Part shown: positions 2,939-57,872 of the stretch, in pieces
How the letters are laid out: each line of letters begins with the position of its first letter
Numbering within the stretch: position 1 is the stretch's first letter
Origin: a bacterium
GTDB taxonomy: Bacteria > UBA8248
Length of the DNA: 64,000 nucleotides
Direction of reading: 5' to 3'
Assembly: GCA_965199855.1 (NCBI GenBank)
Contig: OZ241326.1
Location: 2,367,486-2,431,485, forward strand
Program-made: the position numbers and the translations under genes
Notes under the pieces: model-generated
What the model saw: only the letters and a program-made list of their open reading frames with translations
The model's database searches: none
What the model was told of the DNA's origin: nothing

Positions 2939-4375
2939 ATGAGCGAGAAGAACTCCCCGCAAGACCCCGGTTCGGTCGGCCTGACGAGGACGCGGACGAT
3001 AACGCTGCCCGATCCGTTCAGGACGGATTCGGGCGAAACGCTGCCCGAAGTCCGCGTCGCCTACGAGACATACGGCGAGCTCTCCCCCGGCGGTGACAAC
3101 GCCGTCCTCGTCATCCACGCCTTGACGGGCGACGCGCACGCGGCGGGCTTCCACAGCGAGGCTGATCCGCGCCCCGGCTGGTGGGATCCGATGATCGGCC
3201 CCGGCAAGGCCATCGACACCGAAAAATACTTCGTCGTCTCCTCCAACAACCTGGGGGGATGCGCGGGCACGACGGGGCCCGGCTCCATAAATCCCGCCAC
3301 GGGGAAGCCCTACAACATGCGCTTCCCCGTCATCACGGTGGAGGACACGGTTCGAGCGCACAGGCTGCTCCTCGAGCGCCTGGGGGTAAAGCGCCTCAGG
3401 ACGGTCATCGGCGGCTCCCTCGCCGGGATGCAGACCCTGGAGTGGGGTCTGCGCTACGGGGACTTCTGCGACTCCGTCATCCCGGTCGCGGCCGCCGCCC
3501 GCCTGGATCCCATGGGAATCGCGTGGGGCAAAATCGCCCGCAGGGCCATTACGGCGGACGCCGCCTGGAAAAGCGGCGACTACGCCCCCGGCCAGGGGCC
3601 GCGCAAGGGCCTGAGCGCGGCGCGGATGCTGGCCCACGTCACCTACCTGAGCCGGGGAATCATGTGGGAGAAATTCGGGCGCGAGACGCGGGACAAGGAC
3701 GCGATGCTGGCGGACATCGCCTCCCGCTTCGAGGTGGAGAGCTATCTCGACCACCAGGGCGAGAAATTCGTCGATCGATTCGACGCCAACTCGTATCTGT
3801 ATATCTCCCGCATGATGGACCTCTACGACGCCTCGCTGGGCTTCGAGAGCCTGGAAGCCTCCCTCTCCCGCCTGAGCGCCAAGTGCATGCTCGTGTGCTT
3901 CATCTCCGACTGGCTCTTCCCGCCGGAGAGAAGCATTGAGATGGCCGAGGCGCTGCGAAAGCTCGGGCGTGAGGTGGAGCTGCACACCGTGGAATCCACC
4001 TACGGTCACGACGCCTTTCTGGTGCAATACGACAAGCTCACCGAGATCGTCGGCGGCTTTCTGGAAAGGCTCGAAAGGGGCGGGGCGATCGGCATCGACG
4101 CGACCCCCGTCCCCCCGGGGTGCCGCCGCCTCGTTCTCTCTTTTCCCGGCGACTTGGCGGACAAACCCGTTTTGTGGGAACTCGGCGAGAGATACTCGTT
4201 TTCCGTCAACGTGGCGAGAAGCGAGCTCGACGCCCGCTCGGGCTGGCAGGTATGCGAATTCCAAGGAGACGCGGAGGAAATCGCGCGCGCGGCGGCGGAA
4301 CTCAGAAGCATGGGCGTCTGGGTCGATGCGGGAGGGCACGACGCCATCGACCACGATCGCGCCGAAGTGGTATAA
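2939..4375 (+). CDS. metX: homoserine O-acetyltransferase MetX with a ~90-aa C-terminal extension domain
   Basis: VAYETYGELSPGGDNAVLVIHALTGDAHAAG...GGSLAGMQTLEW is the classic MetX alpha/beta-hydrolase core. At 478 aa it exceeds the usual ~370-400 aa; the extra tail is ...LVLSFPGDLADKPVLWELGERYSFSVNVARSEL... Confidence 0.85.
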   Translation: MSEKNSPQDPGSVGLTRTRTITLPDPFRTDSGETLPEVRVAYETYGELSPGGDNAVLVIHALTGDAHAAGFHSEADPRPGWWDPMIGPGKAIDTEKYFVVSSNNLGGCAGTTGPGSINPATGKPYNMRFPVITVEDTVRAHRLLLERLGVKRLRTVIGGSLAGMQTLEWGLRYGDFCDSVIPVAAAARLDPMGIAWGKIARRAITADAAWKSGDYAPGQGPRKGLSAARMLAHVTYLSRGIMWEKFGRETRDKDAMLADIASRFEVESYLDHQGEKFVDRFDANSYLYISRMMDLYDASLGFESLEASLSRLSAKCMLVCFISDWLFPPERSIEMAEALRKLGREVELHTVESTYGHDAFLVQYDKLTEIVGGFLERLERGGAIGIDATPVPPGCRRLVLSFPGDLADKPVLWELGERYSFSVNVARSELDARSGWQVCEFQGDAEEIARAAAELRSMGVWVDAGGHDAIDHDRAEVV

Positions 4376-4450
4376 ATCAGGGAGCGCGGCCCGGAACATA
4401 AAGATCGCTTTCTTTTCTCAAACCCGCAAACACAAGACGGAGACGATCCG

Positions 4451-5083
4451 ATGAGCGCACTGAAAGAACCCATCGTCGTGGTGAAATACTCGGATTACAC
4501 GTGACCGTTCTGCTACGTCGCCACCGTGGGTGGCACGCCCGTGATCGAGGAAGACTCCGACGTGGTCGTCGAATGGGTCAGCTGGGAGGGCAGACCCCCC
4601 GGGCAGGATTTCGCCGGCTACACGCCCGAGCAGAAAAAAGAGAACTACGAGAACCACCACAAGCCTCTCGCCGAGAAATACGGCGTGCCGCTCCGCCCGG
4701 CGGGGGCGGACTACCGCACGACGGGCCTCCACATGGCCACCTACTACGCCCGGGACAAGGGAAAATTCAGGGAATTCCGGGATCGCTGCTACAAGGCGCG
4801 CTGGGTGGACGACCTCGACCTCGAGGACGCGGAGACCATCGCCGCGCTCGGCGAGGAGGTCGGCCTGGCCGGGCAGGAAATCAAGGCCGTCATCGCCGAG
4901 GGGCGCTACATCGGCGCCCTGCGCAGCCAGCGCGCCCAGGGCAAGGGTCTGGGCATTTTCGGAATCCCCACCTTCGTGGTGGAGGGCAAGCTCTTCTGGG
5001 GCAAGGACGTCATCGACGACGTGCGCGCCGAGGTCGCCCGCGTCCGGCGGGAGCGGCTCGAAAAGCAAGAGGAAGAGGGCTAG
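4451..5083 (+). CDS. DsbA-like thiol-disulfide oxidoreductase selenoprotein (UPFC active site), 210 aa including Sec
   Basis: The ATG at 4451 gives MSALKEPIVVVKYSDYT-TGA(4502-4504)-PFCYVATVGG..., continuing in frame into track ORF 4526..5083. The TGA sits exactly at the first Cys of the DsbA CPFC motif. A GC hairpin gccacc-gtg-ggtggc (4520-4534) lies 15 nt downstream of the TGA, consistent with a bacterial SECIS. The GIFGIPTFVV DsbA motif is present. Confidence 0.7.
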
Positions 5084-7854: not shown

Positions 7855-10407
7855 TCACATCATGCTTATCGGGTCCACGTCCACCGCCAGCTGAACGGAG
7901 GAAAACGCCGCCTGCGCGTCGAATTCGGCCGCCAGCGATTCGAGCGCCTCGCCCAGGCGCCTCGACGTCCTCGCCTTGAGAATCATGTGATGCCGCCATA
8001 CGCCGCGCGCCTTGGGAACCGACGCCGGCGCGGGACCCAGGCATTCGACCTCCTCCGCTCCGGCGGCGCGCTTTTTCAGAAAGGAGGCCGTCCACTCGGC
8101 CGACTGCGCGGCCAGCCGCCCGTTTTTCGACTCGAAACGAAGCCGCGCCAAGCGTCGATACGGCGGATAGCCCATCCGCTCCCTCGCCAGAGCCTCCCGC
8201 CGGTAGAAGCCCGCGTAATCGTGCGCGCGCGCGCACTGAATCGCAAAATGATCCGGCCGGAACGTCTGGATGATGACCTCGCCCGGCAAATCGGCGCGCC
8301 CCGCCCGGCCGGCCACCTGCGTCAGCAGCTGGAAGGTGCGCTCACTCGCCCTGAAATCCGGCAGATGAAGCCCCACGTCGGCCACGACGACGCCCACGAG
8401 CGTCAGCTTGGGGAAATCATGTCCCTTCGCCGCCATTTGCGTTCCGATGAGGATGTCAGCCTCCCCGCTTCGCATCGCCCCGAATATCCGCTCATGCGCC
8501 CCCGCACGGCGGGTCGCGTCGCTGTCGATTCGCAGCACGCGCGCGCCCGGAAACCGCGCCTTCGCCGCCTGCTCCACGCGCTCCGTTCCGACCCCGAAAT
8601 AGCCCACCCGCCCGCCGCCGCAGGAGGGACATTCACCGGGCGGACGCGCGCTGTAATCGCACCAGTGGCACTGCTCCCTTCCCCCGCCTTCCCGGTGAAA
8701 CGTGAGGGGAATGGCGCAATGAGGACACTGAAGCGCCTCGCCGCAGTCGCGGCACAGGATGGTCGAGGAAAATCCGCGCCGGTTCAGAAACAGCAGCGTC
8801 TGCTCGCCTCTCGCCAGGCGATCCCGGATGGCCTCGGACAAATCGGGCGTGAGGAGCTCGGGCGCCCCGGATCGCGCGCCGGCCTCCTTTCTCAAATCCA
8901 CCAGCCGCACCTTCGGCAGCGCGCCGCCCGTCGGCCGACCGGACAGTTCGCAAAGCCTGTAGCGCCCGCTTCTCGCGCTCGTATAGCTCTCGATGGAGGG
9001 CGTCGCCGAGCCCAGAACGACCGGAACGCCCAGATTCCTGGCGCGCACGATGGCGGTGTCCCGCGCGTGGTAGCGCGGCGATTCCTCCTGCTTGTAGGAG
9101 CCGTCGTGCTCCTCGTCCACCACAATCAGCCCCAGATTCGGAATCGGGGCGAAAACGGCGGACCGCGCGCCCACGACGATGGGCGCGTCTCCCTTTTTGA
9201 CGCGCCGCCACGCGGCGAGACGCTCCCTGTCTGAATATGCGCTGTGCAGGCAGACCGCCAGACGGCCGAAGCGCTCCTGGAACCGCCCCAGCAGCTGAGG
9301 AGTCAGGCCGATTTCCGGCGCCAGGATCAGCGCGCCCAGACCATTGTCGAGCGCCTCCTGCGCGAGCCGCATATACACTTCCGTCTTTCCGCTGCCCGTT
9401 ACGCCGTGAAAAAGGGTGACCGAAAAAATTTTCGCCCCCACGTCCCCCCTCACCGCCCGGAACGATCCCTCCTGCTCCTCCGTGAGAACGGGCAAAGCGG
9501 CGCCGCGCGCGACAGCGTCCGCCCCTCCAGACGTCCCGTTCGCCCCATCCGGCGCGAGGGCCTCCTCCACCTCGATCCATCCTTTTTTCTCCAGGGCCGC
9601 GCAGGCGGCGCGCGCGCCCCGCAAGCGGGCTTCCAGGTCTCGCAACGGCATCCGCCCGCCTTCCGTCCCGCCCAGAAGGCGCAAGACCTCCGCCTGCCGC
9701 TCCGCGCGATTCTCCAGGCGCCTCCACGCATCCCCCGAAGGCTTCCTGAGCAGACGCGCGCATCTGACCTTTCTCGGCCCGGCGCCGCCCACGGACTCGA
9801 CGCTCTTCTCCACCAGACCCGCATCGAGAAGACGCGCAAGCTCCGGGCGCGTTCCCCGTCCGAACGCCGCCGCGAGAGAGGGGAGGGTTCTCGGGCGTCC
9901 GCGAAGCCCCGCCAGAATTCGCGTCCTGAGATTCCCTTTCGCCTCCGGGGATGCGAGACCGGGCAGCCCCAGGCCGCCTTCCTCGAGGGCGGCTTCGCGC
10001 CGGCCGGCCGCGCTCAGCCGATAGCGTTCCACGGTCTTCTTCTCCCGGTGGGCCGGAAGAGCGAATTTGAGAGCTTCCCCCCAGCCGCAGCAGTAATACC
10101 GCGACACCCACCTGGTGAGCTTCAGAAGCTCCGGCGTGAGCAGAGGCTCCTCGTCGATCATCTCCAGAACGGGCCGGATGGAAGCGGGCGCGACGCCCGC
10201 GGGCGGCCGCTCGCTCGGCGCGCCGAGGACGTATCCCGTCAGCTTCCTCTTTCCCAGGGGAACCAGGACGCGCAGCCCGGGCGCGAGCCGCTCCGCGAAC
10301 TCCGGAGACGCGCGATAGGTGAGCGATTCGAGATGGGGCACGCTGAGGGCGACCTCGACGTAGCGGCTTCGCGGCTCGCCCGCCTCTTTTTTGAGGGCGT
10401 ATTTCAC
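7855..10407 (-). CDS. priA: primosomal protein N' (PriA replication-restart helicase)
   Basis: 850 aa with helicase motifs GVTGSGKTEVY and DEEHDGSYKQEESPRYHARD, plus a Cys-rich zinc-binding region. Confidence 0.85.
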   Translation of the reverse strand: MKYALKKEAGEPRSRYVEVALSVPHLESLTYRASPEFAERLAPGLRVLVPLGKRKLTGYVLGAPSERPPAGVAPASIRPVLEMIDEEPLLTPELLKLTRWVSRYYCCGWGEALKFALPAHREKKTVERYRLSAAGRREAALEEGGLGLPGLASPEAKGNLRTRILAGLRGRPRTLPSLAAAFGRGTRPELARLLDAGLVEKSVESVGGAGPRKVRCARLLRKPSGDAWRRLENRAERQAEVLRLLGGTEGGRMPLRDLEARLRGARAACAALEKKGWIEVEEALAPDGANGTSGGADAVARGAALPVLTEEQEGSFRAVRGDVGAKIFSVTLFHGVTGSGKTEVYMRLAQEALDNGLGALILAPEIGLTPQLLGRFQERFGRLAVCLHSAYSDRERLAAWRRVKKGDAPIVVGARSAVFAPIPNLGLIVVDEEHDGSYKQEESPRYHARDTAIVRARNLGVPVVLGSATPSIESYTSARSGRYRLCELSGRPTGGALPKVRLVDLRKEAGARSGAPELLTPDLSEAIRDRLARGEQTLLFLNRRGFSSTILCRDCGEALQCPHCAIPLTFHREGGGREQCHWCDYSARPPGECPSCGGGRVGYFGVGTERVEQAAKARFPGARVLRIDSDATRRAGAHERIFGAMRSGEADILIGTQMAAKGHDFPKLTLVGVVVADVGLHLPDFRASERTFQLLTQVAGRAGRADLPGEVIIQTFRPDHFAIQCARAHDYAGFYRREALARERMGYPPYRRLARLRFESKNGRLAAQSAEWTASFLKKRAAGAEEVECLGPAPASVPKARGVWRHHMILKARTSRRLGEALESLAAEFDAQAAFSSVQLAVDVDPISMM

Positions 10408-21432: not shown

Positions 21433-21507
21433 TCCGGCGTAGCTCAACGGCAGAGCAATCGGCTGTTAACCGATGGGTTGTAGGTTCGAATCCTACCGCC
21501 GGAGCCA
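21433..21507 (+). tRNA. tRNA-Asn (anticodon GTT)
   Basis: Acceptor tccggcg/cgccgga, anticodon stem atcgg/ccgat with loop ctGTTaa, T-arm gtagg-ttcgaat-cctac, discriminator G, encoded CCA. Confidence 0.85.
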
Positions 21508-21577
21508 TGGGGGAGGGGGGCAACGGGCCGCCCATTGCAAGTTCTTGACTCCAAGACCGGCGAAAGGAGGCTTGACC

Positions 21578-23455
21578 GTGCTCTTTGCGGAAGCCAAAGA
21601 TAGGATCCGGAGCTGGATTCGCCGCCTTATCAAGTGGCTGACCAAGCCCGAATATCCCACAGAGGCACCCGAACCAATTCCATCGAACGAGGCAAGGCCG
21701 GAGACAACCCACATACTGGCGTCTCCCCCAACTACGGCATCGCCAAAGTCAGAACCGGCCTCTCCTTCCGACCCAGGCGAAGGCACCGACGCGGAACCCA
21801 AGACAACGGACGATTCAGCAAGCAAAGAAGAGCCCAAGAAAGAACCGCGCAAGATAGGACCGAGACGTATCAAGCCGGACAACAATCGCCAAAAACCAAA
21901 TCGCCCCGCACAACTCACCCGCCCCTTCACTCCCAGGGCGGAGTTGCTCTGCCGCCAAGCTCGGGGTTCATCCTGGGAGTTAATTCTGTCCGTTCCCGAA
22001 GAATGCGGCATTGTGAAAATACAACATGACAACAACCCCTTGTCAGTCGACGAAAACGGCGAATGTCGCCCGTCATCATTCTCCGGCACCCTGAAAGTTG
22101 AATACAGCGACGGAAAAACTGACGAGATTATCCCATTGGTCTGCGACAAGACGCCGCTGGTTTTTAAAATGCGGAACGGCTGGCAAGGGTCTGGCCGCAA
22201 AATTAGCGGAATTACTCGTGGGCACTTCATTGTTTTCACGCCTGCTGAATGGAAGCGAACGGGTCGCGTTCCGGTAGAAGCCGAGAACTGCGTGGACGCT
22301 GACTTCCGGGCGCACTACTTCCATGCGCGCAAGAACGACGCAAACGATGAAATTGGCGGATTTAAGGAATATGAAGTCCCGTTGACCCCAACCGGATTCG
22401 AGTTGGAAGGTACTAGAATTTTCGATGATTCTGAAGATGGGGAACTATTCGTTGATACAGTTCCAAGGGTGAAGCCCGCGTCCGGCATCGTCTGGGCGCG
22501 CGTGGGCGAAGAGCGGCAGAGAGGCTGGTCTGGAGAAAATTTCAGACCCGATGACAAATCTCTCAAGAAAGTTCTGAATGGCCGCCAGAGGCGATTTTAT
22601 GTCCGCGTCTATGACGACGCGCCCAAGTTGATGGACAGCGGCGAGTTCCGCTATTACGCGGATCTGCAAGATATTCAGGTGAATGGCGTATCGTATTCGC
22701 AGGACATGCTGTTGCTCCCCACGTCGGACGGGCATTCGCCAACAAGACTGCAATTCATTGCCCGGAATGGAGAGCTGATCTCCCAAGATCGGCTGGAATT
22801 GAAAGGAAACAACCCTCACGCGGCCATTACGCCAGATGGCGTTTTGACAATAGCCCCACACCCGGATGGCGATGAAATAACCTTAGTCTTAAAAGCCAAT
22901 ACAAGTAGCGTGGCCGTCAAGCTCCACTTGCCGCGCGTCTGGTGGAGGCTTGAGCGATCAGGAGAGGAGCCAAGCAGGTGGGGCGACCAACCCCTAAATA
23001 TGACGCGCGATGAGTTTCGAGATCGGGCCAATAAGAGCACCGTGATAAAATTGCGATTGCCTTCACGCATCAAATCTGCCGATGTGGGATTTGGTGATAA
23101 TCTGGACCGGAGACTTCCCATAGGGGACGGATTGCCACTTGGGAACTTTATCGATTATACGGAAATCGACAATCCATCAAGTGAAGAGGTCGAACTGCGA
23201 ATTCGATGCAATAGTGAAAGGCTAACTCTAATCCAACTTGCCGCTGACTTACCTGCCCCTACAAAGAAGCCTCTAACAAACAATATGCCAGACACTTGTC
23301 CAAGCGGCAACAAGGGATTCAGCTGCGGCGAATTGCGGAAGGCCAATCTCACAGCCGCCGATGCGAAACGCTTGCAATTACGTATCGACAGGCGACGCCG
23401 CAGCGAACACAATAGCAATATAGACAGGCTCATGGAGATTGGAAACGATGCCTGA
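21578..23455 (+). CDS. island protein A: 625-aa protein of unknown function (N-terminal amphipathic helix, Pro/Thr/Ser/Glu-rich linker, ~480-aa beta-rich C-terminal region)
   Basis: The track ORF starts inside the tRNA; the likely true start is GTG 21578, with GGAGG 8 nt upstream. The protein runs VLFAEAKDRIRSWIRRLIKWLTKPEY..., then a PTS/E-rich segment, then ...GHFIVFTPAEWKRTG... No nuclease, methylase, ATPase or other catalytic motif was recognised by eye. It overlaps gene B by 8 nt. Confidence 0.6.
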   Translation: MLFAEAKDRIRSWIRRLIKWLTKPEYPTEAPEPIPSNEARPETTHILASPPTTASPKSEPASPSDPGEGTDAEPKTTDDSASKEEPKKEPRKIGPRRIKPDNNRQKPNRPAQLTRPFTPRAELLCRQARGSSWELILSVPEECGIVKIQHDNNPLSVDENGECRPSSFSGTLKVEYSDGKTDEIIPLVCDKTPLVFKMRNGWQGSGRKISGITRGHFIVFTPAEWKRTGRVPVEAENCVDADFRAHYFHARKNDANDEIGGFKEYEVPLTPTGFELEGTRIFDDSEDGELFVDTVPRVKPASGIVWARVGEERQRGWSGENFRPDDKSLKKVLNGRQRRFYVRVYDDAPKLMDSGEFRYYADLQDIQVNGVSYSQDMLLLPTSDGHSPTRLQFIARNGELISQDRLELKGNNPHAAITPDGVLTIAPHPDGDEITLVLKANTSSVAVKLHLPRVWWRLERSGEEPSRWGDQPLNMTRDEFRDRANKSTVIKLRLPSRIKSADVGFGDNLDRRLPIGDGLPLGNFIDYTEIDNPSSEEVELRIRCNSERLTLIQLAADLPAPTKKPLTNNMPDTCPSGNKGFSCGELRKANLTAADAKRLQLRIDRRRRSEHNSNIDRLMEIGNDA

Positions 23456-26400
23456 AACTCGTGACATTGAGAGATGGGTTGATACGATTGGTGCTCGCTA
23501 CGAAAATTATTTGAAAACCTCGTTTTACTTCAAGGACTCGAAACTCCGTGAATCGTTTCAACATGCGTTACAGGGTGGCCGCCTGCTGAAAGGGCCTTTT
23601 CCCGAACCGGCGCGCGACTTCAAAAAAGGCGTAGACGCGAGGCAACTGGCGAAAGAATGTTTTCCTGACAGGGGCGGCGCTCTACTTCCGGCATTACGGA
23701 AAGGCGCTTTGTATGTCCATCAAGAGCGCGCCGTGCGTTGTACTCACACAGACCAGCGGAACATCGTGGTCGCCACCGGTACCGCCAGCGGCAAGACGGA
23801 GAGTTTTCTCTACCCGATTCTGTTCGAGTTGTACCGCCAATACTTGGCGGGAGAACTCAGCGAGCCCGGCGTGCGGGCCATGATCCTGTATCCGATGAAC
23901 GCGCTCGCCAACGATCAAAGAGAACGCCTTGGCGAAATTTGCGAGCAGCTACGCAAGGAGGGTTCAGATTTTGCCCCCATTTTCGGACAGTACATCGGAC
24001 AAACACCCGAAGATCAAAGAGACCGTCGGCGTAACGCCTCTACTCGGGAAGAGGAACGCCTGCCCGGCGAGTTGGTTTTCCGGGAAGAGATGCGGAACAA
24101 TCCGCCGCATATCCTGCTGACCAATTATTCCATGCTGGAATACCTTCTTATTCGTCCGAGCGACAGCCCGCTTTTCGACGTAGACCGAGGCAAACACTGG
24201 CAATTCATCGTGCTTGATGAAGCTCACCAGTACCGGGGCGCCAAAGGGATGGAGATGGGCATGTTAATCCGGCGTCTCAAGCAACGGTTGCGCGATGGAG
24301 GGCGCGAAGATCGTTTCCGCTGCATCGCCACCAGCGCGACCATCGCCACCGGCGAAGGCGAAGAAGACAAACAGGTCGTCGCGAAATTCGCCGAGGAACT
24401 CTTTGCCGAGCCTTTTCGGACATCCGGCATCATTTTGGGAGAACACGAACAACAGTCACTCAAAAAGGAGCCGCGTCGCTTCCATGCGTTCGCGCGCGCC
24501 TTGGAAGGGGCTTTTTTGCTCCATGATGACGGTGAGGATGCGGTCATCCTCAATCGCAAGAGAGAGGTTGGGTGCCGCGCCGAGCCCTTGGAAATCGCGT
24601 TATGCCGGGAATGCGGACAACACTATTACGTCGGCCGGGAAAATGATGGCAAGTTGAAAGAAGCGGTGCGAGATCCCAGTCATCCGAAATTTGGCGTGGA
24701 TTATTACCTGCCATTGGAAAGCGATAATGCCGCTTCTCATGTCTTATGCCGATGCTGCGGCCAACTCTCCGCCGACGGGTCTGCTTGCGATTGCGGCGAC
24801 AGCGCCTCAATTCTCGTCAAGAAGTGCGAATCTCATAAAGAACATCCGGATCACCTGAAGAAATGCGAAGCCTGCGGCTATAGCCGCGGCGGCATCGGCG
24901 ACCCTGTTCAGGAAATCGTGCACGGCTCCGACGGCCCCAACACCGTCATCGCGACCGCCCTTCACGAGTTGCTACCGGAAAGCAGGCGCAAGGTGCTGGC
25001 GTTCGCCGACAGTCGGCAGGAGGCCGCGTTCTTCGCCTGGTATGCTCAGGACTCCTATACGGAGGTACGCGACCGCAATTTGATGTTGCGCGCTTTGAAG
25101 GCTGGGGCAATCGATTCTGAAGGACTGTCCATTGACGACCTCAAAAACCGACTGTTCAAACAGTGGGAACAGTCTGGTCTGTTTGAGAGAGCGGATACCA
25201 GGGAAAGCAAGGACCGAAAGGTGCTGACGGCAATCCTCGGAGAAGCGTTGACGGACGAGAAGAGGCTGTCCTTAAGTGGAGTCGGTTTGGTCAGGTGGTT
25301 CGTCAAAATCCCGGACGACTTGAGACCGCCGGCCTCAATGCTGGAGCCGCCTTGGAATCTAACGGATGAAGAAGCGCGCCGCCTTCTCGCATATCTTTTA
25401 GACGAGTGGCGTGTGCGCTACGCCTTGGCTTTGCCGGACGGTGCAGGGACCCCGTTATGGAACGACGTATCACCCCTGCGGCGGCAACAGGCTTACGGTC
25501 TGGGCACCCCCGGCAAAAGAAAAAACATCGCAGAATGGGGCAGCTCCCAATCCGCAATCGTTGGTCACTTCCTGCGCCGGCTCCTTATGCGAAATGGACA
25601 GTCCGGCAATGACGACCATTCACAATCGATCATGCTGATGAAGGATGTATGGAGCGCATTGCGCGAGCGGGATAAAAAATATGGCCAAAAAGCCGACCAA
25701 ATTCTTTCGTCCGCTAACACAAACGGGACATTCCGCCTCAACTCGCGCTGGCTGCGGACCAAGCTCGCCGAGCCATCTGAAATTTGGGAGTGCGACACGT
25801 GCGCAAGCCTGAGCACCCACAACATTCACAACATCTGTCCTCGAAACGGATGCCCCGGAAATCTGTCGCCTGCCGGCCAATCACGGCTTGAAGAAAACCA
25901 CTATCGAATCCTTTACGAAAAACCCGGCCTGCCACCCACGCTATGCGCTGAAGAACATACGGCTCAAATCGAAAGCAGCGAGGCGCGCCAGAGACAGGAT
26001 CGCTTCAAAAGCGGACAAATACACCTCCTCAGTTCCTCAACCACGTTTGAGGTTGGCGTCGACTTGGGCGATCTCGAGGTCGTATTCCTCCGCAACGTGC
26101 CGCCGGAGCCGTTCAACTATACCCAGCGCGTCGGGAGGGCGGGACGCCGAGAAACGCCGGGATTGGCGCTGACCTACTGCCGCCGCAACCCACATGACTT
26201 GTACCACTACGAAGACCCGGAAAAGCGCGTGATAGAGGGAAAGGTGCAACCCCCAAGGCTCCGGATGACCAACGACAAAATCATCTCCCGGCACATGGCC
26301 GCCGTCGCTCTGTCCGCATTTTTCAAGAATGAGGGAAACGAGGAACGCTTCAGGAATGTCGAATCCTTCATCGGCGATTGGGAGAATCCTCGCGCCGTTT

Positions 26401-27716
26401 CGGACCTGAAGCAGTTTTGCGAAAACAACGAGGCGTTGAAGAATTCGCTACTCCGGAGCGTGCCGGAAGCCATGCGCGAAACAACCGGACTCAACAGCAA
26501 TGATTGGATTAAAATCATCGCCGGCCCGGACAGCCGCCTTGACCGAGCCGAGAAAGAAGTTTCCGACGACTATCAGCGCATGGAAGCGCTTGAAAAAGAG
26601 TACTCGGACAACAGCAAATATAGCGACGCGAAACGTATCAAGCAACGGAGGGATACCATCGCTAACGAACAAACCTTGACCTTCCTCTCACGCAAAGCCG
26701 TAATTCCCAAATATGGCTTTCCGGTTGACGTGGTGGAACTCGATACCCGGGAACTCGATACCCGGCCGCAAAACAGAAGTTCGGCAAGAGTATCGTTGCA
26801 AAGAGACCTGTCTCAAGCCATTGCCGAATATGCGCCGGGCGGTAAAGTCGTGGCGAACAAGCAAGAGTGGGAATCATGCGGTGTAAAAGTAATTTCCGGA
26901 AAGCAATTTCCGGTCAAGCGTTACGCTTACGACGATGCCCGCTATTTTCAGCAATGTGATGAAGAGGGCAATCTTCCAAACAGCAGAAGCAGAAGATACC
27001 TTTCTCCGGTCTTCGGTTTCGTGACACCGCTATTTGAGAAACCCAAGAAGCCGCGGGGACGAGCGCAACGCCTATACACAACACGACCGTTTTTTCCGGG
27101 TTTTGATGAAGAACCGGAATCCAAGGACCTGTTCGGGATTACGGTAACAAAAGCGCAACCGGGAAGCTTGGTCATCCTGTGCGAGGGGCGGAATCAGAAA
27201 GGGTTCTATATTTGCCGCACTTGCGGAAGCCACATGACGAAGCCAGCGAGCGCGCACAAGACGCCGGCAGGATCCAAATGTACCGAGAGATTAGAGAAAT
27301 TTTCGCTCGGGCACGAGTTGGTTACGGATGTAGTGCGCCTGCAATTTTCAGACTTGGGCGACCAGTGGGACGCTTACTCCCTCGCTTACGCCATACAGCT
27401 GGGCGCGTCGAAAACAATGGATGTGCCGGACACGGACTTGAACGTCACTATCACTGGCGACAAAGCATCGGACGAGACGGCGATTGTCTTATATGACAAT
27501 GTTCCCGGCGGTGCCGGTCTGGTGGCGCAGTTGGAACACGAGGGTATATTTCGAGAAATGCTCGGCAATGCCCGAGAACGGGTACAAGGCGGATGTGGCT
27601 GTGACTCAAGTTGCTACGGTTGTCTGCGCAGCTACCGCAACCAGTTCGCGCACCCGCACTTGAATCGCAAAAGAGCTCAAGCCTTTTTACCCGCCGTAGG
27701 CGTCGGGGCGGAATAG
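23448..27716 (+). CDS. island protein B: large DExH-box SF2 helicase with a Zn-ribbon insertion and C-terminal DUF1998/MZB Cys4 domain (DruE/MrfA/DrmA-like)
   Basis: The track start at 23439 is TTG; ATG 23448 gives MPETRDIERW... Motif I VVATGTASGKTESF, Ia ILYPMNALANDQ, II VLDEAHQY, III ATSATI, VI QRVGRAGRRETPG. An insertion between the RecA-like halves carries four CxxC pairs (LCRECGQHYY..., CRCCGQ, CDCGD, CEACGY). The C-terminus CRTCGSH...C..GGCGCDSSCYGCLRSYRNQFAHPHL matches the DUF1998 signature. Confidence 0.85.
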   Translation: MPETRDIERWVDTIGARYENYLKTSFYFKDSKLRESFQHALQGGRLLKGPFPEPARDFKKGVDARQLAKECFPDRGGALLPALRKGALYVHQERAVRCTHTDQRNIVVATGTASGKTESFLYPILFELYRQYLAGELSEPGVRAMILYPMNALANDQRERLGEICEQLRKEGSDFAPIFGQYIGQTPEDQRDRRRNASTREEERLPGELVFREEMRNNPPHILLTNYSMLEYLLIRPSDSPLFDVDRGKHWQFIVLDEAHQYRGAKGMEMGMLIRRLKQRLRDGGREDRFRCIATSATIATGEGEEDKQVVAKFAEELFAEPFRTSGIILGEHEQQSLKKEPRRFHAFARALEGAFLLHDDGEDAVILNRKREVGCRAEPLEIALCRECGQHYYVGRENDGKLKEAVRDPSHPKFGVDYYLPLESDNAASHVLCRCCGQLSADGSACDCGDSASILVKKCESHKEHPDHLKKCEACGYSRGGIGDPVQEIVHGSDGPNTVIATALHELLPESRRKVLAFADSRQEAAFFAWYAQDSYTEVRDRNLMLRALKAGAIDSEGLSIDDLKNRLFKQWEQSGLFERADTRESKDRKVLTAILGEALTDEKRLSLSGVGLVRWFVKIPDDLRPPASMLEPPWNLTDEEARRLLAYLLDEWRVRYALALPDGAGTPLWNDVSPLRRQQAYGLGTPGKRKNIAEWGSSQSAIVGHFLRRLLMRNGQSGNDDHSQSIMLMKDVWSALRERDKKYGQKADQILSSANTNGTFRLNSRWLRTKLAEPSEIWECDTCASLSTHNIHNICPRNGCPGNLSPAGQSRLEENHYRILYEKPGLPPTLCAEEHTAQIESSEARQRQDRFKSGQIHLLSSSTTFEVGVDLGDLEVVFLRNVPPEPFNYTQRVGRAGRRETPGLALTYCRRNPHDLYHYEDPEKRVIEGKVQPPRLRMTNDKIISRHMAAVALSAFFKNEGNEERFRNVESFIGDWENPRAVSDLKQFCENNEALKNSLLRSVPEAMRETTGLNSNDWIKIIAGPDSRLDRAEKEVSDDYQRMEALEKEYSDNSKYSDAKRIKQRRDTIANEQTLTFLSRKAVIPKYGFPVDVVELDTRELDTRPQNRSSARVSLQRDLSQAIAEYAPGGKVVANKQEWESCGVKVISGKQFPVKRYAYDDARYFQQCDEEGNLPNSRSRRYLSPVFGFVTPLFEKPKKPRGRAQRLYTTRPFFPGFDEEPESKDLFGITVTKAQPGSLVILCEGRNQKGFYICRTCGSHMTKPASAHKTPAGSKCTERLEKFSLGHELVTDVVRLQFSDLGDQWDAYSLAYAIQLGASKTMDVPDTDLNVTITGDKASDETAIVLYDNVPGGAGLVAQLEHEGIFREMLGNARERVQGGCGCDSSCYGCLRSYRNQFAHPHLNRKRAQAFLPAVGVGAE

Positions 27717-28010
27717 CCGAAAACACTTTCATTGAGGTTCGTTGGGCGGCTTTTTCGAATTGCAACGCCCCCCTAGTCCCGGCGGTAGCCCCGGCATTTG
27801 GCGAGGATGGCGCCGTCGCGCGAGAACCACTCGGCGGTGAAGCCCGTCCCCTTGGGCAGAAACTTCACCAGGAGCAGGCCCTCGCTCCTGCCGCGCCGCC
27901 AGCGATACCACGAGCCCCTGGAGTCCCGCCCGTCCAGTTTGAGTCCCGTCCTCTTGAGGCGGCTGCCCTGGATGAAGCCCTCCTTCTCCCGGAAGCCGGC
28001 GGCGATGCCC

Positions 28011-46237: not shown

Positions 46238-47446
46238 ATGAAGAAAACGCGGCTCCTGACGGGGTGGGCGTTGACGCTGATCATGGCGGGATGCGCTGCG
46301 CCCACCATGAAAGTTCCGCCCGTGACGAAGTACGAGCAGAGGGAGGAGGCCAGGAAGCAGATAGCGATGGCTTCCAGAAGAACCCCGCTGAAAATGAGGA
46401 AGAACGAGAAGAACCTCGATCCGGAGAAGTGGCTGAACGAGATCGCCTATCAGATTTATCGAGCGAACGCCGAGTTTTGCGACAAGACGAGATTCATATC
46501 GGGATTCAGCTGGGAGAGCAGGCCGTATCTCTACAAGGGGGCGTTGGGAGATCGGGCGGCCTACGTCCTTCAGGTGTACGAGGACTCTCCGGCGGAGAAG
46601 GCGGGCTTGAAGGAAGGGGATCGGATTATCAGGATAAACGGGCATTATTTGGGGACATCAGGCGCGGGCGGGAAGAATATGCTTGAAAATCATTTCAGGC
46701 AGGGGGGGATGACGAACCAGCTCGTGGTGGACAGGGGAGGGACAAGGAGGGGAGCGCCGGCGGAACTGGTGGAAATAAGCGTAGGACAGACCAGGAACTG
46801 CGACTATCCGGTTCACATAAAGCCGGACGGCAAGGTCAACGCCTACACCGACGGGAAGAAGATCGTCTTTACCACGGGGCTGTTGAAGTTCGCGGACACC
46901 TCGGAGGAGCTGGCGTTCGTGCTCTCCCACGAGTTGGCGCACATCATCGAGAAGCACGTGGACAAGTCGAAAGCCAACACGTTCATCGGCGCCGGAATTG
47001 GAGCGGCGGTAGGAGCCGCGCTGGGGGTATTGCTGGACGCCGGACGTTCCCGATCTTCCGGCGGAGAGAAGAAAAGGACGACGAATTACGCCGAGAGACT
47101 GGGGACGGTGGGGATGGCGGCCGGAGCGATAAAGGGAAGACTGGCGTACTCCCCCGAGTTTGAAGGAGAGGCCGACTACATCGGGGTGTATTTGATGGGA
47201 AGGGCGGGATACGAGCTCGACAACGTAGCGGGGTTCTGGAGAAGGATGGGAGCGAAGCATCCACAGGCGATTATGCACAGCGTTACGCATCAGCCGACGG
47301 CGAAAAGGTTCGTGGCGGTGGAAAAAGCGGTAAGAGAGTTCAAGTGGAAGCAGAGCCGGGGGGAGAGGTTGATTCCGGAGAAGAAGGCGTTCTCGACGGG
47401 GAGCTACGCTGAATCCGAACATGGGAACGAGGGAGAAGGCAACTAG
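46238..47446 (+). CDS. M48-family metallopeptidase lipoprotein with internal PDZ-like domain (lower-GC gene)
   Basis: Lipobox LIMAGC; HELAH zinc motif (FVLSHELAHIIEKH); PDZ-like AEKAGLKEGDRIIRINGH; local GC about 56-58%. Confidence 0.7.
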   Translation: MKKTRLLTGWALTLIMAGCAAPTMKVPPVTKYEQREEARKQIAMASRRTPLKMRKNEKNLDPEKWLNEIAYQIYRANAEFCDKTRFISGFSWESRPYLYKGALGDRAAYVLQVYEDSPAEKAGLKEGDRIIRINGHYLGTSGAGGKNMLENHFRQGGMTNQLVVDRGGTRRGAPAELVEISVGQTRNCDYPVHIKPDGKVNAYTDGKKIVFTTGLLKFADTSEELAFVLSHELAHIIEKHVDKSKANTFIGAGIGAAVGAALGVLLDAGRSRSSGGEKKRTTNYAERLGTVGMAAGAIKGRLAYSPEFEGEADYIGVYLMGRAGYELDNVAGFWRRMGAKHPQAIMHSVTHQPTAKRFVAVEKAVREFKWKQSRGERLIPEKKAFSTGSYAESEHGNEGEGN

Positions 47447-53731: not shown

Positions 53732-54940
53732 ATGGAGGCGCCGCCCGGTCTCGGCTGCGCCCCGCCTCCTTTCGCGTCCCCCGGCGAGGCGAAGCCATCC
53801 CGCGAGGGGGAGCGCCCTTTGCGACCCGAAACCGAAAAGCGCGCGCCGAAGCCCTCCTCCGGGCGAGGCGGAATCCCTGGGGGAAAGCCGGGGCTTCTCC
53901 CCGCGCTCGCGCTTCTCGCCGCGGCGCTCTGGGCCGCGGCCCCGGCCCGGGCGGCGAGCCCCCCGGCGCGAAACCCCTGCGCGGTCAATCCCCCCGCGGC
54001 GAATCCATCCGGCGGAAACCCCTGCGCGCCCTCAAGAAGCCCGCGCCCCGAAGCCGCCGGGGGAGGAAACCCCTGCGCGCCCCGGAATCCCCGCGCCGGA
54101 GACGCCGGCGCGAAGGCGGGGACGAATCCGCAGGGCGGCAGGCTTTTCGATCCCTTCGCCGACGACGCGGGGCGGGCGGGCGGCGAAAAACCCCCTCCGC
54201 CGCCTCCGTCGCCGGGCGGGGGCGTCCAGTGGGGGGAGAGCCGGGCGGGCGTCGCGCGGCCGCGCTACCTCTTCACCCAGCGGCCCGACGCCAGCGTGCG
54301 CGACGCCGTCGCGCGCGGCAGGCGGGCGTTCAGGCGCGCGGGTTGCGTGGGTTGCCATCCCCGGGGGCGCACCATCTACGGCCACGCGGCGGACGTGACG
54401 GGCGCGACGCATCCGTTTCCCATCCCCACCCTCATCGGCGCGGCGGAGCACTTTCCGCGCCTGGGCCCGGCGGGACGGGCGCTCAGCGTCGGGCAGTTCA
54501 ACGACTTCTGCGCCACGACCTTCCTGGGCGAGCCGCCCATGGACCCCTATTCGCAGAAATACAAGGACCTGGAAGCCTACGTGGTCTCGCTCTCTCCCGA
54601 ACGCTACGAGCGGATGCTCGCCTGGGAGGCGAAGCGCAAGGCGCTCGCGCGGGCCATGCGGGGGACGCCGGGACCGGGAGCGGGCGGCGGCGCTTCGACG
54701 CCTTCTTCCGGCGGGGGAGAGAAGCCCGCCGCGCCGACCGCGCGAATCCCCGGCGGGGGCGGAGGGAAACCGGTCGGGGGAAACCCCTGCGCGCCCTCGA
54801 ATCCGCGCGCGGGGAAGCCCGGCGCCGCCCCAAGCGCCCCCGCCGGGGTCAACCCTTGCGCCCCCCGAAATCCATGCGCGGCGAAAAATCCCTGCGCGAT
54901 TCCGAACGCGCGCGCGAAAAACCCCTGCGCGAAGCCGTAG
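53732..54940 (+). CDS. secreted mono-haem c-type cytochrome domain protein flanked by tandem 'G-NPCA-P' repeats
   Basis: Signal-like LLPALALLAAALWAAAPARA; single CxxCH (RAGCVGCHPRG); at least 9 NPCA motifs (NPCAVNPP, GGNPCAPS, GGGNPCAPRNPRAG, GGNPCAPSNPRAG, VNPCAPRNPCAAKNPCAIPNARAKNPCAKP). The N-terminal start is uncertain. Confidence 0.55.
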   Translation: MEAPPGLGCAPPPFASPGEAKPSREGERPLRPETEKRAPKPSSGRGGIPGGKPGLLPALALLAAALWAAAPARAASPPARNPCAVNPPAANPSGGNPCAPSRSPRPEAAGGGNPCAPRNPRAGDAGAKAGTNPQGGRLFDPFADDAGRAGGEKPPPPPPSPGGGVQWGESRAGVARPRYLFTQRPDASVRDAVARGRRAFRRAGCVGCHPRGRTIYGHAADVTGATHPFPIPTLIGAAEHFPRLGPAGRALSVGQFNDFCATTFLGEPPMDPYSQKYKDLEAYVVSLSPERYERMLAWEAKRKALARAMRGTPGPGAGGGASTPSSGGGEKPAAPTARIPGGGGGKPVGGNPCAPSNPRAGKPGAAPSAPAGVNPCAPRNPCAAKNPCAIPNARAKNPCAKP

Positions 54941-55624: not shown

Positions 55625-56146
55625 ATGGCGGAATTCACCGTGGCGAATTTCAGGGACGTCTCCGGGGGGCTCCAGGAGGGCCAGTTCGCCGTGGGCGAGC
55701 GGAAGAAGGCGAGCGGCCTGGCCGACCTCGACCCCATCTACGGGCAGCTGCTGGACATGCCGATCACGGTCACGCTCGGGCTCGTCGGCCCCGACGGGCG
55801 GGTGAACCTCACGCCCATGTGGTTCGACTACGAGGGCGACATGATTCTGGTGAACACCGCCGCGCACCGGGCGAAATGCGGATGGATACGCGCGAACCCG
55901 CGGCTCACCATCCTCCTCGTCAACCCCGAGAACCCCTACCACTGGATGAGCGTGAAGTGCGAGGTCGTGAACGAAATCCGCGAGGGGGAGCCGGGCGGGG
56001 AGCGGGCCGCCGAGCAGCTCGACCGCATCTGGACGAAATACACGGGGCAGGAGCCGCCCTACGCGCTGCGCGATCCCGTCATCGACGAGAAGCGCGTCCT
56101 CTTCGAGTGCCGCGTGGACAGAATCGCCACCTTCGGAAAGCCCTGA
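55625..56146 (+). CDS. PPOX-class F420/FMN-binding split-barrel protein
   Basis: 173 aa; ...RVNLTPMWFDYEGDMILVNTAAHRAKCGWIRANPRLTILLVNP. Confidence 0.65.
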   Translation: MAEFTVANFRDVSGGLQEGQFAVGERKKASGLADLDPIYGQLLDMPITVTLGLVGPDGRVNLTPMWFDYEGDMILVNTAAHRAKCGWIRANPRLTILLVNPENPYHWMSVKCEVVNEIREGEPGGERAAEQLDRIWTKYTGQEPPYALRDPVIDEKRVLFECRVDRIATFGKP

Positions 56147-56306
56147 GGCCGGGGGGCGCGCCGCTTCGCGTCATCGATGCGCGCGTCTCTTGCGGGAGGC
56201 GCGAAGCTGCGCGGCGCCGAAGCGATGGCGGGGAGGAATGGAAACGGCCTTTTCAACGTCTTCAGCGACCCCGAGTTTCCAAAACCCTGAATCTACCGTT
56301 GCGCTA

Positions 56307-56732
56307 TCAGAGTTCCCAAAGCTCCACATCAGACGGAATCATGTGGAAGCAGGCGCGTCTGAAATAGGAAAGCAGAGTCTCGCCCGTAGATTTCCTCACG
56401 CTCCGCTCAACGATAAATATCTTCCGATAAGCCTTGGGAGCCATGTGAAAATGGAACATGGCTTCCGCCCAGTTTTTCATCTTCGCGCTTGGAACATTCC
56501 CCCCTGCTGTCCAAGTGTGCGATTTGCATTCCACGATGATTTTGGGACGCTCTGATCCAAAATCGAACGTGTGCTCCTTCTTGTCCTTCTTGGCTCGTCC
56601 AAGCCCCACCGCCAATTTGAAGTTGGATTCCAAATCGAGGCCATGCTTGGCCAGCGCCCTCTTGGCCTTCTTCTCAAATTTCCGTCCGACATCCGCATTG
56701 CTGTTCGCGCCCTCGCGCTGATGATTCGCCAT
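56307..56732 (-). CDS. small PD-(D/E)xK nuclease-fold protein (Mrr-cat/restriction-endonuclease-like), low-GC gene
   Basis: 141 aa; HTFDFGSERPKIIVECKSHTW gives a D...E-x-K arrangement; local GC about 52% versus ~70% flanks. Confidence 0.5.
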   Translation of the reverse strand: MANHQREGANSNADVGRKFEKKAKRALAKHGLDLESNFKLAVGLGRAKKDKKEHTFDFGSERPKIIVECKSHTWTAGGNVPSAKMKNWAEAMFHFHMAPKAYRKIFIVERSVRKSTGETLLSYFRRACFHMIPSDVELWEL

Positions 56733-56744
56733 ATTCTTCCTCCT

Positions 56745-57872
56745 CTACCAGACGCAGCCGCGGGCGGCGACGGGAATGACGACCTCGAGGACGCCCTCCT
56801 CCGTCCCGCCGCGAATTCCATGATAGACGTCGTAGAGGTTGATGGTCGGGTCGCAGTGGCTGGGCTGGAACAGGAGCGTCTCGCCGATTTCGGGACGCCG
56901 GGCGGAGGGCGAGAGCGTCAGCACGCCGTGCTCGTCCGAGGCGCGCGCGTGCTCGGCGCCCTCGAGCTCCAGGCAGGGGGCGAGCCCGCTGTCCGAGGCG
57001 AGCGCCTTGTGGCCGGCGTCCACGACGGCGCGGTCGGACGAGGCGCTCACCACCGTCGTCAGCACGAACAGGGCGGGCCGGAAGTCGTCGTAGGCTTCGG
57101 AGTCCTCGCCGCCGATGCTGCGGTAGTGGGAGTCCATGAAGAGGTAGCTGCCCGCCTGGAGCTCGTTCAGAACGCACGCTTCCGCGTCCCAGCGCCAGGA
57201 GCCGGTGCCGCCGCCGCTTCTGATCTCCGTGGAAAGCCCGGCGGCGCGGAAGGCGGCTATGGTCTCCTCCATCAGCGCGATGGCGCGCGCATAGACCGCG
57301 CGCCGCTCGGCGAAGCCCTCCACGTGCTGCGCCGCGCCCTGATACGCCTGAATCCCCCGGAGCGCGAGCCCGGGCAGCCTCTCCACGCGCTCGGCCAGCT
57401 CGACGGCCGCCGCCCCCGGCGCGACCCCGCAGCGCCCCTGGCCTACGTCCACGTCCACGAGCGCGCCGATCTCCGCCCCCGCCTCCACGGCGGCCTCGGA
57501 GAGCATGGCCGCCCCCCGCGGGTGATCTACCACCGCCGCGATCCGCGCGTGGCGCGCAAGGGCGGCGAGGCGCCCGAGCTTCGAGGCGGCGGCGACCTCG
57601 CTGCTCACCAGCGCGTCCTCCACGCCGCCCGCCACCATCACCTCCGCCTCGCTCACCTTCTGGCAGCACACGCCCACCGCGCCCAGGGCGATCTGCTTTT
57701 TCGCCAGCCAGGGGCTCTTGTGCGTCTTGGCGTGGGCGCGCAGGCGGACGCCCGTGCCCTCCAGGCGCGCCGCCATGCGCGCGAGGTTCTCCTCCATGGC
57801 GTCGAGGTCGATGAGCAGGGCGGGGGTTTCGAGCTCGCGCGCGGGCGTCCCGACCCTCTGGCTCGGTCGCAT
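56745..57872 (-). CDS. alanine-racemase-N-domain / DSD1-family PLP enzyme (D-serine deaminase or D-threonine aldolase-like)
   Basis: LLIDLDAMEENL...RAHAKTHKSPWLAKKQ (PLP-binding Lys); 375 aa. Confidence 0.75.
   Translation of the reverse strand: MRPSQRVGTPARELETPALLIDLDAMEENLARMAARLEGTGVRLRAHAKTHKSPWLAKKQIALGAVGVCCQKVSEAEVMVAGGVEDALVSSEVAAASKLGRLAALARHARIAAVVDHPRGAAMLSEAAVEAGAEIGALVDVDVGQGRCGVAPGAAAVELAERVERLPGLALRGIQAYQGAAQHVEGFAERRAVYARAIALMEETIAAFRAAGLSTEIRSGGGTGSWRWDAEACVLNELQAGSYLFMDSHYRSIGGEDSEAYDDFRPALFVLTTVVSASSDRAVVDAGHKALASDSGLAPCLELEGAEHARASDEHGVLTLSPSARRPEIGETLLFQPSHCDPTINLYDVYHGIRGGTEEGVLEVVIPVAARGCVW

Follow-up and report, generated by a model that had tools for sequence, protein, structure and literature searches.

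We examined a single gene, here called X together with the 141-residue protein that it encodes, in a 64,000-nucleotide (nt) stretch of bacterial DNA (contig OZ241326.1), which as a whole is referred to as the window. The genes and other features of the locus are as follows, in window coordinates:

56307 to 56732, minus strand: coding sequence of X (ATG start, TGA stop), a 141-residue single-domain PD-(D/E)xK protein with the predicted catalytic residues E20, D57, E68 and K70
56745 to 57872, minus strand: upstream flanking gene, a housekeeping enzyme of the DSD1 family dependent on pyridoxal phosphate (PLP; Pfam Ala_racemase_N and D-ser_dehydrat), ending in TAG
56733 to 56744, minus strand: 12-nt spacer AGGAGGAAGAAT between the stop codon (TAG) of the DSD1-like gene and the start of X, with a strong Shine-Dalgarno (SD) sequence
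55625 to 56146, plus strand: downstream flanking gene, PNPOx-like (Pfam PF01243), convergent with X and forming the right border of the polymorphic site
56152 to 56218, no strand assigned: GC-rich inverted repeat with 19-nt arms between the convergent X and PNPOx-like genes
56237 to 56744, no strand assigned: low-GC foreign segment of ~0.5 kb (SD sequence, X and proximal 3΄ region), an insertion relative to close relatives
56272 to 56306, minus strand: former C-terminal tail codons, now untranslated, since a 1-nt insertion after ...GAACTC made the TGA stop

A preliminary description of the locus had pointed to a 141-residue open reading frame (ORF) carrying FDFGS and IIVECKSH, to a G+C content (GC) below that of the surroundings, to a 12-nt gap behind the DSD1-family gene and to the lack of any visible methylase or partner. 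All of these observations hold. The two motifs occupy residues 56–60 and 65–72, the gap is exactly 12 nt, and the GC of the X ORF is 0.523, compared with 0.733 in the DSD1-like gene upstream, 0.669 in the PNPOx-like gene downstream and 0.665 in the whole window. The difference is also evident at third codon positions (GC3; 0.65 in X versus 0.93–0.94 in both flanking genes). Homologues of methylases, Hsd proteins and GmrSD were absent across the whole 64-kb window, and genes for the domains that are fused to X elsewhere gave chance-level matches only.

X is a real gene and not a chance ORF, because a word-indexed search recovered 461 homologous proteins at E ≤ 1e-3, an exhaustive search placed the family in at least 537 clusters at 50% identity from many phyla, and the ratio of nonsynonymous to synonymous substitutions (dN/dS, ω) relative to syntenic copies is 0.19–0.23. 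The homologues from the word-indexed search are typically 60–73% identical to X and ~150 residues long, and every one of them is labelled 'hypothetical'.

Neither a promoter-like nor a terminator-like site was found between the DSD1-like gene and X, and the 12-nt gap leaves no room for either. This arrangement implies co-transcription with the upstream gene, so that the DSD1-like gene is the probable source of X transcription. On the other side of X, the inverted repeat at 56152–56218 may be a bidirectional terminator, although this is uncertain. We also considered an RNA antitoxin or a terminator within the 3΄ untranslated region (UTR) of X, and rejected both: the region folds no more stably than shuffled sequence (z = +1.4), matches no Rfam family and contains no T-tract terminator after X.

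The X insertion in the window and its relatives

We compared the site with related loci (designated L followed by a number) and found that X is a clean insertion/deletion polymorphism there. Homologues of the DSD1-like gene carry the name 'DSD1 family PLP-dependent enzyme [Nitrospinae/Nitrospinota]', and the closest named relatives of the window gene come from Nitrospinota metagenome-assembled genomes (MAGs). The PNPOx-like gene is kept in synteny in L001, L005, L008, L088, L090 and L091. The site is occupied in L001, a near-identical contig in which X is 96% identical and has the same DSD/PNPOx intergenic position, and in L005 and L008, whose DSD protein is 82%, PNPOx protein 88–90% and X about 73–75% identical to those of the window. 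It is empty in L088 and L089 (DSD 92% identical), where the DSD and PNPOx genes are only 30 nt apart, and in L090 (DSD 83%), where they are 72 nt apart. In L091 (DSD 78%), a spacer of 348 nt (positions 4132–4479) holds an inverted repeat resembling a miniature inverted-repeat transposable element (MITE), GTCATTCCGGCGAAAGCCGGAATCC ... GGATTCCGGCTTTCGCCGGAATGAC, in place of X, which makes the DSD/PNPOx intergenic site a recurrent insertion spot.

According to the junction alignment, the left edge of the insert lies directly after TAG-AGG and is exact to ~3 nt. The right edge lies at ~56237 by the GC profile (step at ~56236), and at 56189 at the latest. An AGAG microrepeat at both junctions was too short to interpret. 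In the spacers around solitary copies of X, searches by blastx and blastn-short for relics of hsdS, hsdM and gmrSD gave chance-level matches only. As an observation on the L001 contig itself, its PNPOx-like gene (positions 3934–4456), called as only 129 residues, aligns with the window protein as two segments that overlap (residues 1–38 at 100% and residues 21–173 at 90%), which suggests a frameshift or an assembly error.

The dN/dS values of X relative to L005 and L008 (0.19–0.23, at dS 0.73–0.85) were comparable to those of the DSD gene (0.18–0.21, at dS 0.54–0.63). An ω of ~0.2 indicates that the solitary gene has long been maintained by purifying selection. The spacer upstream of X in L005 and L008, GAGAGGGAAGAT, is homologous to that of the window. 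The X proteins of these two loci are closer (85–87%) to copies embedded in type I restriction-modification (R-M) operons of a Longimicrobiales MAG and a gammaproteobacterial MAG than to window X. As far as the sequences allow, we favour a history in which a single old insertion was followed by acceleration in the window lineage and by losses elsewhere, because the site is shared, the dS values are similar and the SD-proximal 12 nt are conserved. Repeated exchange between genomes is the less favoured alternative.

Fold, active site and genomic contexts of the family

Searches with X found no match in Pfam (E ≤ 1), NCBIfam or PADLOC (E ≤ 10). The only PHROGs match, at E = 0.027, was taken as noise, and sequence searches of the PDB with both the single sequence and a profile found no real relative, only chance CARM1 matches at E > 1. 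The AlphaFold2 model, computed from a 31-sequence alignment, reached a mean predicted local distance difference test score (pLDDT) of 90.7 and a predicted template modelling score of 0.85. Its elements follow the order α(12–29)-β(35–42)-β(52–61)-β(64–70)-α(82–97)-β(103–108), and the predicted fold is thus the canonical PD-(D/E)xK core, α-β-β-β-α-β. Foldseek found no match to the model in the PDB at E ≤ 1e-3, and the weak matches share the same fold. The structures compared with X included the Upx restriction enzyme, YaeQ, the CdiA-CT and Tox-REase-5 toxins, SfsA, NgoMIV, BstEII and other type II enzymes, NucS, Can2/Card1, HamA, Vsr and Hjc; none of them was close to X, and the identity was at most 18%.

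The catalytic signature falls where the fold requires it, with E20 in α1, D57 in β2 and E68-C-K70 in β3, and these residues are invariant or nearly so among the 31 close sequences. Among 76 diverse representatives of the family, E20 is retained in 82%, D57 in 92%, E68 in 96% and K70 in 95%, so that the D/E/K triad, whose conservation in homologues the preliminary description had proposed as a check, is well conserved. C69, W74 and K84 are each kept in at least 96% of the same representatives. Within the subfamily, 67 of the 141 positions are at least 95% conserved; the sole unconserved part of the family is a variable C-terminal tail of 7–20 residues, present in all members other than window X and its L001 counterpart. 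X thus has what the model and alignments would lead one to expect of the PD-(D/E)xK superfamily, namely the core fold together with a conserved acidic residue in α1, an aspartate in β2 and a (D/E)xK motif in β3. The description as an Mrr-cat or restriction-endonuclease core is accordingly borne out for the fold, but not for the family, as neither Mrr_cat (PF04471) nor VRR-NUC (PF08774) matched X in searches with hidden Markov models (HMMs). The family appears undescribed, being unannotated in Pfam, NCBIfam and PADLOC and not found among published embedded candidates. What is already known is the kind, that is, a PD-(D/E)xK nuclease as cargo of defence islands.

We next describe the surroundings of 80 genomic loci of X homologues, in which neighbouring ORFs were clustered and recurrent clusters annotated. 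These loci come from Alpha- and Gammaproteobacteria, Chloroflexota, Gemmatimonadota, Acidobacteriota, Verrucomicrobiota, Desulfobacterota, Neisseria and Neobacillus. The recurrent neighbours were HsdM, HsdS, HsdR of the EcoEI type, GmrSD, a DUF262-only relative of GmrSD and an SMC-like ATPase. The close subfamily (56% identity or higher) accounts for 45 loci. Of these, 27 have X in a type I R-M operon, typically in the order HsdR...HsdS-X-HsdM with 4-nt ATGA overlaps on both sides, and five of these also have a GmrSD-like gene after X. Nine further loci adjoin GmrSD and/or the SMC-like ATPase, and nine have none of these neighbours (18 of the 45 are without Hsd genes). The methylases with which X is associated are N6-adenine methylases. 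Among distant members of the family, one lies in a DISARM-like context (DEAD/MZB helicase - X - SNF2 helicase) and another is followed by a PLD-like protein.

The GC of X is below that of the host locus in 75 of 87 loci. Around solitary copies (loci without Hsd or GmrSD), 77 neighbouring proteins fell into 105 Pfam families, each matching at most two proteins; these neighbours include, in Neisseria, genes for an aminotransferase and NifU, and elsewhere ribonucleotide reductase, carbamoyltransferase and transposases. Since no partner is conserved, solitary copies such as that of the window are normal for the family. The family was absent from 50,697 GenBank phage records and from IMG/VR, and was found on three plasmids only. 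On one of them, a plasmid of Methylobacter sp. YRD-M1 (L099; NZ_CP091425.1, positions 71674–72078), the X homologue, which has no entry in the plasmid gene table used, directly precedes a uracil-DNA glycosylase gene and is bracketed by two IS256 transposase genes. At L038 (positions 9585–10004), a degenerate HsdR fragment stands beside an X that looks intact, pointing to the decay of an R-M operon around it. N-terminally truncated or frameshifted copies of X were seen in L035, L046, L047, L064 and L074.

To define the place of X in type I operons, we sampled 80 metagenomic loci (L101–L180) whose HsdM is 73–90% identical to an X-adjacent HsdM, 71 of which had enough upstream sequence. X was present in only 4 of these 71 sister operons. 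The immediate neighbour of hsdM, which usually overlapped it by the same 4 nt, encoded HsdS in 19 loci, GmrSD or a DUF262 protein in 19 and other proteins in 28, the last group including a GIY-YIG/DUF4357 nuclease, a PIN toxin, a ParE toxin, a RhuM-family protein, a Schlafen-AlbA_2/Fic-like_C protein and X itself. The hsdS-hsdM junction of this EcoEI-type clade is a hotspot of interchangeable defence and toxin-antitoxin cargo. Because only 4 of the 71 sister operons carry X and the slot holds alternative genes, X is optional defence cargo and not an R-M subunit. Nested in multi-gene defence operons, optional and interchangeable, X shows the published signature of 'guilt-by-embedding', of which the candidates embedded in Hma loci are an example (10.1101/2024.01.29.577857); similar cases are the GmrSD-like TgvAB system inside the type I R-M locus of Vibrio pathogenicity island 2 (VPI-2) (PMC11411939) and DarTG2 inside that of enteropathogenic Escherichia coli (EPEC) (PMC12255303). 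The junction also holds unannotated small ORFs of 84–106 residues.

The HsdR proteins of X-containing operons keep their own nuclease motif (GPADY...VVEAKP), and X is therefore not a replacement nuclease. For the same reason, and because hhalign gave a probability of 2%, we rejected the idea that X is a detached HsdR nuclease domain. A 651-residue HsdS-X fusion (P0172) was discarded as a sign of physical interaction, since its X part is degraded (ECES in place of ECKS, with the D57 region lost); it is probably a pseudogene or an assembly artefact.

Extra domains of at least 60 residues are carried by 32 of 150 family representatives, about one fifth. The same few domains occur at either terminus of X, as expected for modular fusions. 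The commonest of them, domain B, is an unannotated domain of ~85 residues with the motif GGYPG..HRMPxCC...IRYxLPR, noted in proteins P0141, P0145, P0188, P0196, P0253 and P0391–P0394 and loci L095–L098. It also occurs as a free protein of 85–117 residues, in an island with type III R-M, an ASCH protein, an HD protein and GmrSD, and judging from its AlphaFold2 model, which suggests a winged-helix-like fold, it looks like a nucleic-acid-binding domain. Another fusion partner is DUF7662. Two more recurrent, unannotated partner domains have the motifs 'GDY..N.SY.LA' and 'Y.KG.FN..GRV.R..PRIYG'. Ten fused relatives of X gave no match to PADLOC-DB v2.

Proposed function and rival explanations

The reading that we prefer, and hold to be somewhat better than an even bet, is that X is an autonomous single-domain, metal-dependent PD-(D/E)xK endonuclease from an undescribed, horizontally mobile family that serves as optional cargo of defence islands. 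In such a mechanism, X would be active as an oligomer, most likely on DNA, and would operate without a methylase, an antitoxin or a fixed partner. Its tolerance in the absence of methylase and antitoxin implies that the target is discriminated by some property of the nucleic acid, such as its modification, its structure or its ends; X would spare that of the host through selectivity for modified, structured, damaged or otherwise foreign DNA. It would thus attack invading DNA as a stand-alone, type IV-like add-on nuclease, to which some family members add small DNA-binding-like domains, and the window copy would be transcribed by read-through from the DSD1-like gene. Of the three readings offered in the preliminary description (orphan defence nuclease, toxin or remnant of a mobile cassette), the first appears the best supported, given that type I R-M, GmrSD and similar loci carry relatives of X as optional cargo. 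A bolder version, which we regard as a tentative proposal and less probable than the preferred reading, would make X the founder of a single-gene anti-phage or anti-plasmid family, in which a bare PD-(D/E)xK nuclease of ~150 residues, requiring no methylase and no sensor protein besides itself, functions either on its own or as an insert in type I R-M, GmrSD, Hma or DISARM loci, and foreign DNA is told apart by the catalytic domain itself or by swappable winged-helix-like add-ons.

The established classes delimit this proposal. A type II R-M endonuclease is expected beside its cognate methyltransferase, whereas X has DSD1-like and PNPOx-like neighbours and the neighbours of other solitary copies are unrelated. 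A type I component should co-occur obligately with hsdR, hsdM and hsdS, and X does not. For a type II toxin, an adjacent, co-transcribed antitoxin gene is expected, and no conserved small neighbour of X was found. The type IV class may be the closest in function: X is independent of a methylase, and the recurrent adjacency to GmrSD and the shared slot are suggestive.

Several results, however, weigh against the preferred reading. No characterised homologue ties the family to defence or to any substrate, and X matches no model in PADLOC-DB v2, which includes the HEC and PDC candidates. Only a single subfamily was shown to associate with defence: of the 36 loci from the distant half of the family, 33 had no defence neighbour as judged with narrow HMMs, and the nearest genes were often housekeeping genes. 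With 141 residues and no reader domain, X is a small protein for an enzyme that depends on modification, and DNA rather than RNA is assumed as the substrate. In addition, X of the window and of L001 lost a 14-residue C-terminal tail through the 1-nt insertion (CTC-T-GA versus CTC-GAT...); L005 and L008 read 14 codons further, DIVTGDVSITSPSNKRE, and these codons are still recognisable in the window 3΄ UTR. Window X also differs at 5 of the 67 subfamily-invariant positions (F4H, V40L, L58F, Y94H and T127A, none of them catalytic) and lies on a long branch of a neighbour-joining tree. Taken together, the truncation, the five changes and the long branch mean that the activity of window X could be reduced.

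Among the rival explanations, the one that we would take most seriously, although we consider it unlikely, is that X is a selfish gene, comparable to a free-standing homing endonuclease or to the cargo of a 'minimal mobile element', which spreads into empty sites by cutting or recombination, without benefit to the host. The presence of X in some close relatives and its absence from others at one and the same intergenic site, the GC deficit in most loci, the precise insertion into operon junctions with 4-nt overlaps, the intergenic insertions between housekeeping genes (for example, between the NifS-like and NifU-like genes in Neisseria), the lack of a partner gene, the existence of small PD-(D/E)xK homing endonucleases such as I-Ssp6803I and the closeness of the L005 and L008 proteins to copies from other phyla are all as such a gene would have it. 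Site-specific homing, however, fits poorly with strong conservation (67 of 141 positions) across unrelated insertion sites, and X is kept in place (ω ~0.2 over dS ~0.8), is absent from the phage records and IMG/VR, has no intron or intein context and shares its slot with defence or toxin-antitoxin genes. The last point also tells against a housekeeping-type nuclease of DNA repair or recombination, structure- or lesion-specific and similar to Vsr, NucS, Hjc or RecU, that travels with mobile DNA. This seems improbable to us: such an enzyme would be tolerated without methylase or antitoxin, its universal substrate would fit the very strong sequence conservation, and one copy adjoins the uracil-DNA glycosylase gene of the Methylobacter plasmid, but X is distributed patchily, by horizontal transfer, sister genomes have empty sites, specific sequence similarity to any repair family was not found, and X goes with N6-adenine methylases rather than with the C5 methylases that accompany Vsr.

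We give about as little credence to X being a toxin, namely a nuclease of abortive infection or of a toxin-antitoxin system that, once triggered, would kill or arrest its host cell. PIN and ParE toxins are among the alternative cargos of the same slot, yet there is no space for an antitoxin either in the window (the 12-nt upstream gap) or in the operons (4-nt overlaps on both sides), no neighbour is conserved, the 3΄ UTR contains no structured RNA or Rfam family, and the solitary gene is stably inherited under purifying selection. The toxin reading of the preliminary description is hence disfavoured. It is very unlikely that X is an accessory subunit or regulator of type I R-M, with window X serving an Hsd system elsewhere in the genome. 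The translational coupling HsdS-X-HsdM in at least 20 loci and the one HsdS-X fusion point that way, whereas X is missing from nearly all sister operons, HsdR retains its own nuclease motif, the fusion is degraded and many copies stand beside GmrSD only or alone. Least credible of all is a decaying, non-functional remnant of a lost cassette. The lost tail, the substitutions at five invariant positions, the long branch and the broken copies elsewhere would be expected of such a remnant; on the other hand, ω is low, all catalytic and most invariant residues are intact, the SD sequence is strong, the tail that was lost is the one stretch that the family does not conserve and the flanks hold no relics of partner genes. 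Of the earlier suggestion of a mobile-cassette remnant, mobility stands, in the form of the insertion/deletion polymorphism, whereas the remnant part fails, as partner-gene relics are lacking and purifying selection is seen in place of decay.

If the preferred reading is true, X is an unannotated, widespread candidate defence gene, and among the smallest stand-alone defence nucleases. Its family would then be a natural experiment, in which one and the same nuclease can be found inside type I R-M operons, in a pair with GmrSD, joined to small DNA-binding-like domains or by itself under purifying selection, and this range of contexts makes the avoidance of self-damage by a minimal nuclease a tractable question. 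The hsdS-hsdM junction of the EcoEI-type clade can be mined as a cargo hotspot for further systems. For the window itself the value for annotation is modest: X is an ordinary accessory-gene insertion, and its product an accessory, horizontally acquired nuclease that stands outside the adjacent metabolic operon.

Other features of the window and comparison with known systems

Three other parts of the window may be mentioned. Directly after a tRNA-Asn gene (21433–21507) lies a low-GC island of ~6.5 kb (21433–28000; GC 0.52–0.59). It holds a plus-strand ORF of 660 residues (21473–23455) with no family match and a plus-strand ORF for a DruE-type helicase of 1425 residues (23439–27716; PADLOC DruE3, 3e-154; Pfam DEAD, Helicase_C and MZB). 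The island looks like a Druantia type III-like defence island that has integrated at a tRNA gene, ~30 kb from X. An ORF of 402 residues on the plus strand (53732–54940) is rich in Pro, Ala and Gly, with many short repeats of the NPCA type (GGNPCAPRNP..., AKNPCAIPNARAKNPCAKP) that flank a central region with a CxxCH motif (GCVGCH); its L001 orthologue has no Pfam match, and the protein may be an unusual c-type cytochrome with repeat tails. Finally, at 46401–47200 the GC dips locally to 0.58, with a strongly positive GC skew of 0.245 and an AT skew of 0.20.

PvuII, a small homodimeric type IIP enzyme, has ~157 residues, and I-Ssp6803I, a PD-(D/E)xK homing endonuclease, ~150. Both are similar to X in size and fold, and show that ~150 residues suffice for a complete DNA endonuclease as an oligomer. 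Type II enzymes, however, need an adjacent cognate methylase, which X lacks, and homing enzymes reside in introns or inteins and have one target site, whereas X is highly conserved across varying contexts. XisH-like proteins (PDB 2okf, 'FdxN element excision controlling factor') are only 15% identical to X, which gave no match to Pfam XisH at E ≤ 1; moreover, neither an XisI-like partner nor an excision-element context was seen around X. Compared with Mrr-type type IV nucleases and AF1548 (PDB 1y88; Mrr_cat PF04471), to which it has no HMM match, X is a bare catalytic domain with no DNA-reader domain. The N-terminal nuclease domain of EcoEI-type HsdR has the motifs in the same register (GPADY...VVEAKP...W in HsdR versus FDFGS...IVECKS..W in X), and the order of helices and strands aligns; however, the profile-profile comparison was not significant, and X is a separate gene.

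GmrSD consists of DUF262 and an HNH-like DUF1524 and therefore differs from X in family and fold. HEC-01 to HEC-09 have other folds than X, and RptR is helical, unlike X. It is in its habit that X most resembles the defence genes that sit inside type I R-M or Hma loci (TgvAB/GmrSD-like systems, BrxU/HEC-05, HEC-06, PrrC and DarTG2), being, like them, optional, nested between hsd genes, often translationally coupled and swappable with GmrSD-like genes (PMC11411939; PMC12255303; 10.1101/2024.01.29.577857).

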